From IMG/VR virus record IMGVR_UViG_3300029653_000099: a stretch of DNA of 6,604 bases; one strand, written 5' to 3'. This stretch comes from a virus (Duplodnaviria; Heunggongvirae; Uroviricota; Caudoviricetes). Of the stretch, positions 2,456-6,604 are shown piece after piece. The notes below the pieces were generated by a model. The model worked only from the letters and a program-made list of their open reading frames with translations. It ran no database searches and was not told where the DNA came from. Every line of letters begins with the position of its first letter. Within the stretch, counting starts at the first letter, position 1. The position numbers and the translations under genes were made by a program.

Positions 2456-3307
2456 CTATTGCGCGCTTTCGGGGTTGCTGTTTACTGGCTGCCCCTTCTT
2501 AGTTTTACGGCTGCGCGTAACTGATGCGGCTGATTTGACCTTTTTCTCTTCGCGAGTGATGGCAATTTGTTTTTTTACATTTTCAATATCTGCCAGGCGA
2601 TATATTTTTGCCTGCGGCCAGCGGTCGCAGATGATCGGTTCTATAGAGTCATAAAGGCTAAATTTTGCTTTCTCGAATTTCCCGTTGATGATGATTCCAT
2701 CACGGAGAGTTTCATCGCAGATAAACACACCACACAGCGGCACATGGTAACTAACTGATTTACCATCATTGTAGTTAGGGCTACTGGAAATGTAATGGAC
2801 GCGCAACATTGTTTCGCTAAAGCCGTGTACACGCATACGGAATTTTTCATCCTCCGGGTACTGCTTCATTAGCTCTTTTGTTGCTTCCAGGTTCTCTATG
2901 TATTTCGCACTGTGCTCATTGATCCCCGCGCTTTTCTGGATGCGAATGTCCTTATCAATCAGATGAATAATGCGGCCAGCGGTCATGTTGACGCTGTTCA
3001 CAGCTTCTGTCTGATAAGTTGTAACCTTACGCACACCGCGAAGGATGTTAGGCACTGGATATAAAATAGTCTTTGGGATATTGAGGTCTGGGTACTGTTC
3101 CAGTTCCCGCGCCATTAAAGTCCATTTATCAATTTCAGCCTGAATGCTGTCCGTTTCTTTGAACGGCAGAACGACAACCGGGCGAACAGGACGACCGTCG
3201 CTGGCGGCATCAACGTGTTGGGCGCGTGCAACAGCTTTTTTTAGAAAGAGATCCCTGAAGCTGACGAACTCCTGGTACAGTTGTTCGCCGTAGACATAAT
3301 TTATCAT
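2456..3307 (-). CDS. c1: C1 repressor of lysogeny (283 aa), immC
   Basis: 283-aa ORF convergent with pacB. Length and N-terminus (MINYVYGEQLYQEF...) match my recollection of P1 C1. Strong RBS GGAGGAGGA 6 nt upstream of the ATG on the minus strand. Lies next to coi and loxP-cre as in P1. Confidence 0.88.
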   Translation of the reverse strand: MINYVYGEQLYQEFVSFRDLFLKKAVARAQHVDAASDGRPVRPVVVLPFKETDSIQAEIDKWTLMARELEQYPDLNIPKTILYPVPNILRGVRKVTTYQTEAVNSVNMTAGRIIHLIDKDIRIQKSAGINEHSAKYIENLEATKELMKQYPEDEKFRMRVHGFSETMLRVHYISSSPNYNDGKSVSYHVPLCGVFICDETLRDGIIINGKFEKAKFSLYDSIEPIICDRWPQAKIYRLADIENVKKQIAITREEKKVKSAASVTRSRKTKKGQPVNSNPESAQ

Positions 3308-4060: not shown

Positions 4061-4154
4061 TGATCAATTTACCTGTAAATCCATACAGTTCAATACCTTA
4101 TCAGGTCAAATAGTGATCACTTGATCATTTGATCAAGGTTGCGCTACGTAAAAT
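4061..4154 (+). promoter_or_regulatory. Dam-site cluster and putative cre-region promoter: four TGATCA hexamers (4061, 4114, 4122, 4130), the last three at exact 8-bp spacing, overlapping the -35 region of a -10-like TAAAAT (4149..4154)
   Basis: GATC at 4062, 4115, 4123 and 4131. Recalled literature describes cre promoters regulated by Dam methylation. The -10 and -35 assignment is my own reading. Confidence 0.45.
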
Positions 4155-4199
4155 CTGCGAAATGTTGGCAGTGTTTGTGCTCCAGATTTCGCGTAGCGC
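4141..4199. repeat. Imperfect 17-bp inverted repeat (GCGCTACGTAAAATCTG / CAGATTTCGCGTAGCGC, 15/17) with a 25-bp spacer, ending 33 nt upstream of the 73-aa ORF
   Basis: Arms at 4141..4157 and 4183..4199. Candidate dimeric-protein binding site or RNA stem-loop. Confidence 0.7.
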
Positions 4200-4231
4200 A
4201 CTTAGCACCACCAATCAATCAGAGGTGAAAA

Positions 4232-4453
4232 ATGGGATATTCAGCTGCTAAAGTGTCCACTCATCTTGAGCTTGAGAAAAATCGTGGTTACTGGCGGGCA
4301 AAAGGGTTTGATCGTGATAGTTGTCAACTGTCATTATCGCGCGGTGAAGAAAAGATAGAACGCAGTCGCGGTCGTTGGCGTTTCTATGACGAGAACCATA
4401 AACAGGTAAAGGCAGAGCCGATCCTGTACACTTTACTTAAAACCATTATCTGA
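4232..4453 (+). CDS. Hypothetical small basic protein (73 aa) immediately upstream of cre
   Basis: ATG preceded by a strong RBS (AGAGGTGA, 6-nt spacing). Stop lies 7 nt before the cre ATG, so the two are likely co-transcribed. Lys/Arg-rich sequence. No family recognised. Confidence 0.5.
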   Translation: MGYSAAKVSTHLELEKNRGYWRAKGFDRDSCQLSLSRGEEKIERSRGRWRFYDENHKQVKAEPILYTLLKTII

Positions 4454-4460
4454 GTGTCAA

Positions 4461-5492
4461 ATGTCCAATTTACTGACCGTACACCAAAATTTGCCTGCAT
4501 TGCCGGTCGATGCAACGAGTGATGAGGTTCGCAAGAACCTGATGGATATGTTCAGGGATCGCCAGGCGTTTTCTGAGCATACCTGGAAAATGCTTCTGTC
4601 CGTTTGCCGGTCATGGGCGGCATGGTGCAAGTTGAATAACCGGAAATGGTTTCCCGCAGAACCTGAAGATGTTCGCGATTATCTTCTATATCTTCAGGCG
4701 CGCGGTCTGGCAGTGAAAACTATCCAGCAACATTTGGGCCAGCTAAATATGCTTCATCGTCGGTCCGGGCTGCAACGACCAAGTGACAGCAATGCTGTTT
4801 CACTCGTCATGCGACGGATCCGAAAAGAAAACGTTGATGCCGGTGAGCGTGCAAAACAGGCGCTGGCGTTCGAACGCACTGATTTCGACCAGGTTCGTTC
4901 ACTCATGGAAAATAGCGATCGCTGCCAGGATATACGTAATCTGGCATTTCTGGGGATTGCTTATAACACCCTGTTACGTATAGCCGAAATTTCTAGGATC
5001 AGAGTTAAAGATATCTCACGTACTGACGGTGGGAGAATGTTAATCCATATTGGCAGAACGAAAACGCTGGTTAGCACCGCTGGTGTAGAGAAGGCACTTA
5101 GTCTGGGGGTAACTAAACTGGTTGAGCGATGGATTTCTGTCTCTGGTGTGGCTGATGATCCGAATAACTACTTGTTTTGCCGTGTCAGAAAAAATGGTGT
5201 TGCCGCGCCATCTGCCACCAGCCAGCTATCAACTCGCGCCCTGGAAGGGATTTTTGAAGCAACTCACCGATTGATTTTCGGGGCTAAGGATGACTCTGGC
5301 CAGAGGTACCTGGCCTGGTCTGGACACAGTGCCCGTGTCGGAGCCGCGCGAGATATGGCCCGCGCCGGAGTTTCAATACCGGAGATCATGCAAGCTGGTG
5401 GCTGGACCAACGTAAATATTGTCATGAACTATATCCGTAACCTGGATAGTGAAACAGGGGCAATGGTGCGCCTGCTGGAAGATGGCTATTAG
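4461..5492 (+). CDS. cre: Cre tyrosine site-specific recombinase (343 aa)
   Basis: 343-aa ORF, near-identical to P1 Cre as I recall it (MSNLLTVHQNLPALPVDATSDEVRKNLMDMFRDRQAFSEHTWK...), with the cognate loxP site upstream. A few apparent substitutions relative to the canonical sequence (for example LQRP vs LPRP, IAEISRI vs IAEIARI, LIFGA vs LIYGA, C-terminal GY vs GD); these rest on memory. Confidence 0.97.
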   Translation: MSNLLTVHQNLPALPVDATSDEVRKNLMDMFRDRQAFSEHTWKMLLSVCRSWAAWCKLNNRKWFPAEPEDVRDYLLYLQARGLAVKTIQQHLGQLNMLHRRSGLQRPSDSNAVSLVMRRIRKENVDAGERAKQALAFERTDFDQVRSLMENSDRCQDIRNLAFLGIAYNTLLRIAEISRIRVKDISRTDGGRMLIHIGRTKTLVSTAGVEKALSLGVTKLVERWISVSGVADDPNNYLFCRVRKNGVAAPSATSQLSTRALEGIFEATHRLIFGAKDDSGQRYLAWSGHSARVGAARDMARAGVSIPEIMQAGGWTNVNIVMNYIRNLDSETGAMVRLLEDGY

Positions 5493-5509: not shown

Positions 5510-5526
5510 ATTGCTCTAATTCTTTG
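5510..5526 (+). promoter_or_regulatory. C1-operator-like site ATTGCTCTAATTCTTTG (13/17; first 11 positions exact) between cre and the downstream ORF
   Basis: Direct match to the conserved 5' half of the operator consensus, 17 bp upstream of the next ORF start. Confidence 0.4.
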
Positions 5527-5542
5527 GTATTTATGGTGACAT

Positions 5543-5854
5543 GTGAGAAAGGATTTCAACATCGACGGAAAATATGTAGTGCTGTCTGTAAGCACTAATA
5601 TTCAGTCGCCAGCCGTCATTGTCACTGTAAAGCTGAGCGATAGAATGCCTGATATTGACTCAATATCCGTTGCGTTCCCTGTCAAAAGTATGCGTAGTGC
5701 TGAACATTTCGTGATGAATGCCACCGAGAAAGAAGCACGGCGCGGTTTTGCCAAAGTGATGGCCGAGTTTGGCGAATTTTTGGGGCACGTTGACAAAGCC
5801 CTTTCAATCAGTTCAGCAAGGTCCAAAGCGTTAACAGCTTCCATGCTGAAATAA
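5543..5854 (+). CDS. Hypothetical protein (103 aa) downstream of cre, in the position of P1 cra (cre-associated)
   Basis: GTG start with GGTGA 3 nt upstream, so the exact start is uncertain. Same strand as cre; stop TAA at 5852..5854 followed by a hairpin. No motif recognised. Confidence 0.5.
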   Translation: MRKDFNIDGKYVVLSVSTNIQSPAVIVTVKLSDRMPDIDSISVAFPVKSMRSAEHFVMNATEKEARRGFAKVMAEFGEFLGHVDKALSISSARSKALTASMLK

Positions 5855-5879
5855 AAAAAGCCTGGCAAGGAGCCAGGCT
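5853..5879 (-). terminator. Intrinsic terminator oriented for the minus strand: 8-bp stem (AGCCTGGC / GCCAGGCT), 5-nt loop, then a 6 to 7-U tract on the minus strand
   Basis: On the plus strand it is an A7 tract followed by the hairpin with no downstream T-tract, so it is canonical only for leftward transcription. It sits right at the 3' end of the plus-strand ORF. Confidence 0.5.
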
Positions 5880-5984
5880 GCACAAAAGAGCGGGTTTGTA
5901 TTCCGCATTCAATCAATCAAGAAGGAGTATAGTACACAGGTACTGAAGTGAAAAAATGTGATTCGCGATAAACAAATAACTTTA

Positions 5985-6014
5985 ATTGCTCTAATTGATT
6001 GCTATAATTGAGCC
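5985..6014 (+). promoter_or_regulatory. C1-controlled ref promoter region: operator-like ATTGCTCTAATTGATTG (5985..6001, 14/17), overlapping second partial copy ATTGCTATAATTGAGCC (5998..6014), and extended -10 TGcTATAAT (6000..6008)
   Basis: Perfect TATAAT with an upstream TG, inside two overlapping operator-like repeats about 95 nt upstream of ref. Consistent with recalled C1 repression of ref through operator Op2. Confidence 0.55.
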
Positions 6015-6068
6015 GCAGTTTTTGTCAACTACGAAGACGCTGCCATTACTTCACTCCTTGACATCATT

Positions 6069-6094
6069 GGCGGCCATTAGGCCGCCTTTTTTTT
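6069..6094 (+). terminator. Intrinsic terminator-like hairpin (7-bp GC stem GGCGGCC / GGCCGCC, loop ATTA) followed by T8, ending 5 nt before the ref ATG
   Basis: Stem arms are exact reverse complements, followed by eight consecutive T on the plus strand. Confidence 0.65.
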
Positions 6095-6099
6095 GCCAT

Positions 6100-6537
6100 A
6101 TGAAAACAATCGAACAAAAACTTGAACAGCGCCGCGAGTGGCAGAAGGCAGCCAGAGAACGAGCGATCGATCGGCAACGGGAAAAGTTGGCTGACCCCGC
6201 CTGGCGAGAATCGCAATATCAGAAAATGCGGGATTCTATCGACCGCCGTATCGCTAAACAGAAAGAGCGCCCACCAGCCAGCAAAACGCGGAAAAGTGCG
6301 GTAAAAATAAAATCTCGTGGCTTGAAGGGGCGAACACCGACGGCGGAGGAACGGACCATCGCCAATGCTCTTGGCACTCTCCCCTGCATTGCCTGCTACA
6401 TGCATGGAGTAATATCTGAAGAGGTGTCTCTGCACCATATCTCCGGTCGTACCGCGCCGGGTTGTCACAAAAAGCAATTGCCCCTTTGTAGATGGCACCA
6501 CCAGCATGCAGCACCGGCTGAAGTAAGAGGGGTTTGA
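6100..6537 (+). CDS. ref: Ref-like HNH endonuclease (recombination enhancement function); 145 aa from the MKTIEQ start, apparently shorter than P1 Ref
   Basis: N-terminus MKTIEQKLEQRREWQKAARERAIDRQREKLADP... and the HNH-like core (LHHISGRTAPGCHKKQLPLCRWHHQHAAP) match my recollection of P1 Ref. A highly basic N-terminal region precedes the core. The TTG at 5995 in the ORF track is an in-frame extension through the operator and terminator and is unlikely to be the real start. Confidence 0.75.
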   Translation: MKTIEQKLEQRREWQKAARERAIDRQREKLADPAWRESQYQKMRDSIDRRIAKQKERPPASKTRKSAVKIKSRGLKGRTPTAEERTIANALGTLPCIACYMHGVISEEVSLHHISGRTAPGCHKKQLPLCRWHHQHAAPAEVRGV

Positions 6538-6577
6538 GGGCCAATGATGTAAAAAACCACGCTAAGGAGGTAATTCA

Positions 6578-6604
6578 TTGTTTAAATTGAGATTTAACGG
6601 CCTC
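6578..6604 (+). CDS. Possible 5' end of a gene starting with TTG after a strong RBS (AAGGAGG 6564..6570, 7-nt spacing); runs off the window
   Basis: Consensus Shine-Dalgarno followed by TTG TTT AAA TTG AGA... Only 9 codons are visible. Confidence 0.3.

Follow-up and report, generated by a model that had tools for sequence, protein, structure and literature searches.

The sequence analysed here is a viral DNA of 6,604 nucleotides (IMG/VR record IMGVR_UViG_3300029653_000099), and the whole of it is called the window below. It is a 6.6 kb segment of a P1-family phage-plasmid carrying pacA', pacB, c1, coi/imc, lox, cra, cre, c8 and ref. The spacer of 245 bp that separates c8 from ref may be home to an unannotated leftward transcription unit, and it is with evenly balanced confidence that we propose an RNA of about 65 nt, started from an extended -10 promoter and ended by a terminator that doubles as a barrier at a module boundary. 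According to this proposal, a sigma-70 promoter with the -10 hexamer TATACT, normally an extended TG and a weak -35 TTTTCA would start transcription leftward at about G5918. The RNA would begin with a 12-nt free 5' tail starting GAUUGAUUG, followed by a 4-bp stem-loop and a U-rich linker, and transcription would stop at the terminator 5879..5859 and its U-run, at the c8 stop codon. Such an RNA would be fully antisense to any c8 transcript reading past the c8 stop. Its most likely role would be that of a base-pairing regulator, with its invariant 5' end pairing with CCAAUCAAUC sites directly 5' of Shine-Dalgarno sequences, at cra (upstream of cre) and at a small unannotated open reading frame (ORF) ahead of pmgT. 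The firing of the promoter, the ends of the RNA and the regulation are what we infer from the sequence elements, the conservation and the complementarities described below.

The terminator is the hairpin at 5859..5879 (plus strand AGCCTGGCaaggaGCCAGGCT), which has an 8-bp stem with 6 G-C pairs, a loop of 5 and a folding energy of -15.6 kcal/mol. On the minus strand, the stem-loop reads AGCCUGGC-UCCUU-GCCAGGCU and runs into the U-tract UUUUUU-A-UUU (5849..5858), which overlaps the c8 stop codon (5852..5854). When the last base of the stem is counted, there are 7 consecutive U, then A, then UUU. The plus strand 3' of the hairpin reads GCACAAAAGAGC and has no T-run. The original prediction, made from the sequence of the window, had pointed to this hairpin as being followed by a U-tract on the minus strand only and having no minus-strand gene to its right. 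Both observations are correct, the second within the window, where ref (from 6100) lies on the plus strand. A generic terminator scan of the window is not enriched, with 7 found against 6.6 expected, and it reported no rightward terminator between c8 and 6069. Under stringent criteria (a perfect 8-bp stem, at least 5 G-C pairs and at least 6 T in 8), 5859..5879 is the sole match in the window, and none of 300 dinucleotide shuffles gives any. Because of this, the hairpin is, by its sequence, a real intrinsic terminator that acts in the leftward direction only. The stem-loop is identical in 63 of 69 unique sequences from relatives; one change is a compensatory U-A to C-G, another is C-G to U.G, and the remainder lie in the loop. 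The U-run is present in every relative and is 5-9 U long. Across the alignment, 100% of the cells of the helix are paired, with one two-sided change and one wobble change, a comparison of low power.

The promoter scan of the window reported the leftward site TTTTCA-17-TATACT at 5954..5926. Its -10 hexamer TATACT (5931..5926, minus strand) matches TATAAT at 5/6 positions and is invariant in the 71 unique sequences and in all 105 viral-contig matches; in an alignment of 69 unique sequences, the 68 that reach across the hexamer all have it unchanged. A TG one base upstream is found in 68/71 unique sequences and 102/105 viral contigs. Consequently, the extended -10 triplet on the minus strand (5934..5932) reads TGC in 68 of the 71; in the window it reads TAC, as TG is replaced by TA here and in two close relatives. 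The -35 on the same strand (5949..5954), 17 bp away, is a weak TTTTCA, with the variants TTTTCT, CTTTCA and TTTTTA. In the c8-ref spacer of P1, this site carries TG and is the only leftward promoter-like site found by the scan. The TATACT site is a candidate sigma-70 promoter, of the extended -10 type where the TG is present, and a better candidate than the one first put forward for this RNA. Initiation is predicted at G5918 or A5917, as judged from the position of the -10. The promoter would be arranged back-to-back with P2ref, at a distance of about 97 bp between the two start sites. No direct repression by C1 is expected, since more than 30 bp separate the leftward -35 from the C1 operator (5985..6001) upstream of it. 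A binding motif of H-NS, CGATAAA, has been published for the 5' region of ref (PMC4713147); as read from the window, it lies at 5966..5972, with no strand assigned. Its distance upstream of the predicted leftward start is about 50 bp, and it could affect both promoters. Two independent junctions with transposons or foreign DNA fall at 5940-5942, just upstream of the leftward -10 (in the relatives L007, around 2179, and L023), and one of them has the Tn21-type inverted repeat GGGGTCGTCTCAGAAAACGG. These junctions remove the -35 and leave the -10 and the RNA body intact.

The conservation of the region follows the limits of the predicted unit. The predicted RNA body (5853..5918) has a nucleotide diversity (pi) of 0.017 in the 71 unique sequences, compared with 0.10-0.14 in flanking non-coding DNA, 0.14 in the cre-c8 spacer and 0.06-0.22 at the third codon positions of c8. 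On its right, the discriminator (5919..5925, minus strand), which is predicted to be untranscribed, varies in 5/7 columns. After the invariant -10, the spacer 5935..5948 varies in 11/14 columns; the -35 is moderately variable, and 5955..5984 further upstream has a pi of 0.14. When variable columns are compared, Fisher's test yields p = 2e-8, a value uncorrected for phylogeny. The pattern fits the predicted promoter-to-terminator unit base by base. A local promoter is favoured because a transcript coming from further right would leave the invariant -10 island unexplained.

The predicted RNA is about 65 nt long, with its 3' end at about 5853-5856, and all of its parts lie on the minus strand. 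In the predicted fold, the single-stranded 5' tail GAUUGAUUGAAU (5907..5918) comes first, and its first nine transcribed bases, 5918..5910, are invariant in the 71 unique sequences. It is followed by the stem-loop SL1, GCGG-AAUACAAAC-CCGC (5890..5906), the nearly invariant U-rich single-stranded linker UCUUUUGUGC (5880..5889) and the terminator. The fold has a z of -3.5, and the complementary strand folds equally well. In SL1, one G-C has become G.U, one insertion makes the stem longer and one change breaks it. Only the P1 family has the element, which always adjoins c8. It is found in 615/5426 complete Escherichia coli genomes (about 11%), and of the 617 matching records, 552 share 99% identity or more over 110 nt.

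The invariant 5' end offers a lead to possible targets. Its complement, CCAATCAATC, occurs in 5 copies in P1, compared with 0.33 in dinucleotide-shuffled genomes, and 0/300 shuffled genomes reach 4. Four copies are on the plus strand of P1: at 186, directly 5' of the cra Shine-Dalgarno (window 4211..4220); at 1885, which is the RNA locus itself; at 82472, early in pmgS; and at 84367, directly 5' of the Shine-Dalgarno of a 28-codon ORF ahead of pmgT. The fifth copy, on the minus strand at 73528, is downstream of gene 5 and antisense to the 3' end of dbn. At the cra site, the pairing with the RNA 5' end amounts to 9 bp in the window and 10 bp in P1. Pairing in cis does not constrain a sequence, yet this sequence is strongly constrained, which favours a partner in trans or a protein partner. 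The more specific idea of a conserved, C1-independent, trans-acting small RNA of about 65 nt, with GAUUGAUUG as its seed, pairing upstream of the Shine-Dalgarnos of cra and of a 28-residue membrane peptide, is speculative and rather unlikely in this full form. The overlap of the candidate RNA with c8 would consist of the c8 stop codon only. An effect on c8 or cre transcripts like that of OOP of phage lambda is possible, since the RNA would be cis-antisense to c8 read-through and no rightward terminator precedes 6069.

The 28-codon hydrophobic ORF (MNTAFKIIMAAIYFWLFSITFGGIVAHG, P1 84392..84478) is unannotated and lies between the PpmgT promoters and pmgT, with a good Shine-Dalgarno. It is conserved in 61 viral contigs, where the differences are mostly synonymous apart from one Gly-to-Ser, and its coding part (84 nt) is also found on several hundred non-P1 plasmids. 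A search of NCBIfam gave no match for the 28-residue peptide, C8 or Cra. Near cra, an 18-bp inverted repeat in 4140..4200 (89% complementary, with a 25-nt loop) spans the start region of P3cre; the CCAATCAATC motif and the ribosome-binding site of cra follow just downstream. Three of the CCAATCAATC copies precede a purine-rich Shine-Dalgarno-like run. Independently of any small RNA, CCAATCAATC could be a shared element of 5' untranslated regions (5'UTRs), possibly a leader motif related to translation. The cra site and the spacer motif were also considered as cryptic C1 operators; this was rejected, as only 9-12/17 positions match the operator consensus by eye and the ATTGCTCTAAT half is missing.

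Several observations weigh against a leftward base-pairing RNA. The promoter may be weak in the window, because its -35 is weak and variable and the TG extension is absent. Covariation comprises one compensatory pair, and 42/500 shuffles score as well. Wobble changes speak for the minus strand by 2 to 1, as two changes pair only on the minus RNA and one only on the plus, so the strand assignment rests on the U-run and the promoter and not on covariation. C8 homologues are all at least 82% identical, and the family does not extend lower; as the relatives are all close, the low diversity could partly reflect linkage to the conserved 3' end of c8. A search for distant relatives that could serve for covariation gave 3 loci in the genome scan and P1-type contexts only in the viral scans. 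The Rfam 15 search of the window returned no family at its gathering score; the best matches, all far short of their gathering scores, were SorX (22.4 bits), GcvB (22.1) and suhB (22.5), with E-values of 0.06-0.29, and were driven by the shape of the terminator. The records of P1 and its relatives annotate no leftward RNA or terminator in the c8-ref spacer, and a literature search, which did not cover the terminator table of Lobocka 2004, found none described here. As for the targets, cra came top in a duplex-energy scan of annotated P1 start regions, but this was not significant, as 10% of shuffled seeds did equally well (p ~0.1). The cra site does not co-vary with the variable RNA position 10. 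In addition, CCAAUCAAUCA with a Shine-Dalgarno also occurs in two rightward 5'UTRs, those of cra and of the pmgT leader, and for this reason the spacer could be a relic or a plus-strand element.

Another possibility, unlikely though far from negligible, is that the hairpin is a barrier only, insulating against distant leftward transcription, and that no discrete local RNA is made. A barrier role as such is probable whatever cassette lies to the right: being the first canonical leftward stop met from the ref side, the hairpin probably marks a module boundary and shields c8-cre from antisense transcription. There are candidate sources for such transcription. In P1, the leftward promoter-like site TTGTCA-16-AATAAT (10/12; 2672..2645) abuts Omat and faces into the 3' end of ref in antisense orientation, so that a C1-controlled promoter beside Omat could provide an antisense-ref RNA there and the c4-icd-ant mRNA in variants. 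The Omat block spans P1 2628..2672 and has its counterpart at 4074..4101 of the relative L010. The Omat operator would cover the start of the TTGTCA-16-AATAAT site; the Pmat start, by contrast, is about 60 bp downstream of this operator. About 1/5 of the unique relatives have, in place of ref, a leftward module with an icd-like gene and a KilAC antirepressor gene. In Rfam, this module has a1b1 sites and a C4 RNA that exceeds the gathering score, which makes it a complete immI-like unit; it is headed by a promoter-operator block identical to the Omat block of P1. Going leftward from this block, the first canonical leftward terminator met in P1 as well as in the icd/ant arrangement is the hairpin close to c8, and for the icd/ant module it is the only one. 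The a1b1-c4-icd-ant module is carried by P1-type plasmids of Escherichia albertii and E. coli O103. The res/mod genes were rejected as a source of leftward transcription, since the stop of res is directly followed by a hairpin and T-run of its own.

In the window, the source could be the leftward tnpA remnant of an inserted Tn3-family transposon. Here, the end of a Tn3-family transposon (GGGGTTTGAGGGCCAATGATG..., window 6527..6604) truncates ref at codon 143 of 186, and in a near-identical plasmid (L003 3768..4477) the truncated ref is followed by a leftward Tn3-family transposase fragment and then by IS26. P7 also has Tn3 in the 3' end of ref, and together the two insertions suggest a hot spot. 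Nevertheless, a barrier needs the hairpin and U-run alone, so it leaves unexplained why the 60 nt to the right of the hairpin are nearly invariant and why an invariant TGnTATACT island stands between variable columns. The barrier is, moreover, compatible with the local RNA and does not exclude it.

It is improbable, for several reasons, that the hairpin, CCAAUCAAUCA and AAGGAG are instead a plus-strand element that acts on rightward RNA and only incidentally looks like a leftward terminator. Such an element could be a 3' stabiliser or processing site of the c8 mRNA, or a relic or decoy of the 5'UTR cassette of cra and the pmgT leader. The same order of motifs is indeed seen in these two rightward 5'UTRs: in the pmgT leader, a hairpin stands directly before CCAAUCAAUCA, which is followed by the Shine-Dalgarno, and at cra about 10 nt separate the motif from an inverted repeat upstream of it. 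The A-run before the pmgT-leader hairpin is a rightward -10 region, c8 transcripts would carry the spacer sequence in view of the missing rightward terminator, and the equal folding of both strands suits this explanation. The spacer may in fact have descended from a duplicated 5'UTR cassette, an origin that would make the leftward RNA antisense to the paralogues and that also permits the plus-strand or relic explanation. However, no start codon follows AAGGAG at a usable distance, and the scan found no acceptable rightward promoter before the hairpin. Positions 5923 and 5924, inside the Shine-Dalgarno-like core, vary, while the invariant block is exactly the leftward -10. That hexamer is absent from the pmgT-leader copy, where no leftward promoter was found. 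A type I antitoxin does not fit either, as no ORF lies opposite the RNA at the locus and no start codon comes after AAGGAG.

The original prediction had proposed a different leftward transcript, of about 140 nt, driven by the minus-strand hexamers TTGACA and TATAGC face-to-face with P2ref and under C1 control. Its terminator holds, and a short non-coding leftward RNA at the hairpin is plausible; its promoter, its length and its C1 arrangement find no support, and as a whole the model seems very improbable to us. Both hexamers are present on the minus strand (TTGACA at 6028..6023, TATAGC at 6006..6001), the second overlapping the plus-strand TATAAT at 6003..6008. The site (6001..6028) overlaps the operator Oref and combines a perfect -35 with a 16-bp spacer; TTGAC(A/T) is kept in 65/69 unique sequences, and according to annotation P1 offers a precedent in the opposed promoters PkilA and PaskilA at a C1 operator. 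However, the -10 reads TATAGC, TATAAC or TATATC in 63/69 unique sequences, with transposon junctions or other changes at the hexamer in the remaining 6, and in none of the 71 variants does it end in T, because the C1 operator, through its last G, fixes this final C. The scans of the window and of P1 do not report the site, as its -10 has no T at position 6. TTGACA occurs in 10 copies on the two strands of the window, compared with about 3.2 expected from base composition, and by itself is unremarkable. The -35 hexamer lies within the invariant plus-strand block GTCAACTACGAAGAC, part of a predicted hairpin at the 5' end of the leader of ref that may explain the conservation of TTGAC(A/T) with no promoter role. 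Furthermore, few parts of the region vary as much as the stretch 5955..5984 (pi 0.14-0.22), which this RNA would have to include, and the invariant island at 5926..5931 would be left unexplained. Conservation instead points to a start near 5918, from a promoter about 75 bp further left that is back-to-back with P2ref and outside the operator.

A leftward protein gene was rejected as barely credible, whether it be the 104-codon ORF 5916..5602, which is antisense to c8, or a hydrophobic ORF of 25 codons from AUG 5909. The ORF at 5602..5916 is open as a consequence of sharing its third codon positions with c8, both frames have no Shine-Dalgarno and cross the terminator and U-run, whose length of 5-9 among relatives breaks them, and the diversity at c8 codon positions 1 (0.072) and 2 (0.016) fits c8 and not the antisense frame.

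The candidate RNA can be compared with several known systems. The OOP RNA of lambda, 77 nt long, is transcribed leftward and convergently with cII from a constitutive-type promoter of its own and ends at an intrinsic terminator; its overlap with the cII coding sequence amounts to about 50 nt, and it works through RNase III. Like OOP, the candidate is short, has its own predicted promoter and an intrinsic terminator, converges toward c8 and comes from the spacer between a lysogeny-establishment gene (a putative role in the case of c8) and the next rightward gene. Unlike OOP, it would end at the c8 stop and overlap the read-through 3' region only, and there is no sequence similarity. In P1 itself, the candidate resembles PaskilA (P53as), which opposes PkilA (P53) at OrepL, in being leftward, in the region of a C1 operator and opposite to a rightward C1-controlled promoter. 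At PaskilA, however, the arrangement of promoters is face-to-face, with an antisense RNA overlapping the 5' region of kilA, whereas the candidate promoter is back-to-back with P2ref, about 97 bp away and outside the operator.

The C4 RNA of P1 (RF01695, with a1b1 targets RF03163) is likewise a small phage RNA; it prevents ribosomes from binding by means of short complementary boxes just upstream of a start, a pairing that is only predicted for the candidate. Unlike the candidate, C4 has a defined covariance model and arises by processing of the operon transcript under its own control, while the candidate has its own predicted promoter and terminator. The window has no RF01695 or RF03163 match in Rfam; in some relatives, a second c4 module stands immediately to the right of the c8-ref spacer. 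Prophage small RNAs of the Hfq type, for example DicF, have a 5' seed, a stem-loop, a U-rich stretch by the Rho-independent terminator and a long U tail. The candidate appears to share this architecture, with predicted targets at ribosome-binding sites, but it has no homology to any Rfam family.

On the right of the candidate unit lies the leader of ref. The operator Oref ATTGCTCTAATTGATTG (5985..6001, plus strand) is assigned by sequence match and by the P1 annotation, and the -10 of the rightward, C1-controlled P2ref is TATAAT at 6003..6008, divergent from the leftward promoter. In the curated record of P1, the c8-ref spacer contains solely Oref and the promoters P2ref and P1ref. A strong rightward terminator, GGCGGCC-AUUA-GGCCGCC followed by U8 (6069..6094, plus strand), is most likely the attenuator of ref that was reportedly described by Windle, Laufer and Hays in 1988 (cited in PMC4713147). 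It does not account for the hairpin 5859..5879, which belongs to the opposite strand and lies 190 bp to its left. From P2ref to this terminator is about 55 nt; the terminator stands 5 nt before the ref ATG (6100, plus strand), which has no Shine-Dalgarno. The unit of P2ref, leader hairpin and terminator is intact where the icd/ant module replaces ref (L010 2230..2330). Being kept where ref itself is replaced, the P2ref leader unit could be a stand-alone C1-controlled transcript of about 80 nt as well as an attenuator.

The window is 95% identical to P1 over the cre-c8-ref part, where a window position x corresponds approximately to P1 position x minus 4024, and a plasmid of E. coli ATCC 98082 is 99.9% identical to the window. 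The gene c1 is at 2456..3307 on the minus strand, while cra (4232..4453, with its ATG at 4232), cre (4461..5492) and c8 (5543..5854) are on the plus strand. Upstream of c8, a 17-mer similar to a C1 operator, ATTGCTCTAATTCTTTG, lies at 5510..5526, which is 17 nt before the c8 start; it has 4 mismatches to the operator consensus and keeps the conserved ATTGCTCTAAT half. Its P1 counterpart, ATTGCTATAATTATTTG, includes a TATAAT and has no annotation in P1. Plaque formation does not need cra, cre, c8 or ref (PMC10695390).

Cre-lox comes from P1, a classical model phage that is also the prototype of phage-plasmids, and in the collection surveyed about one in nine complete E. coli genomes carries such a phage-plasmid. 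The curated annotation of P1 has 535 features, among them a single small regulatory RNA (C4) and a single antisense transcript, which lies opposite kilA. The element described here may, with even confidence for and against, be a phage-encoded small RNA that is not annotated in any record examined. A second RNA unit next to cre and c8, held more tightly than the silent sites of c8, would add a regulator to a region that was thought to be fully mapped, and it would give a testable link to cra/cre and to the leader of a late operon. If the more specific idea of a trans-acting RNA is true, cra-cre transcripts from the upstream cre promoters would be affected by it, the gene of the 28-residue peptide that heads the C1-controlled pmgT operon would be a target, and P1 would have a second riboregulator besides C4, lying beside the cre of Cre-lox technology. 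On a minimal reading, the terminator still bounds cre-c8 against whatever stands at the right, be it ref, a second immI-like module or a transposon.

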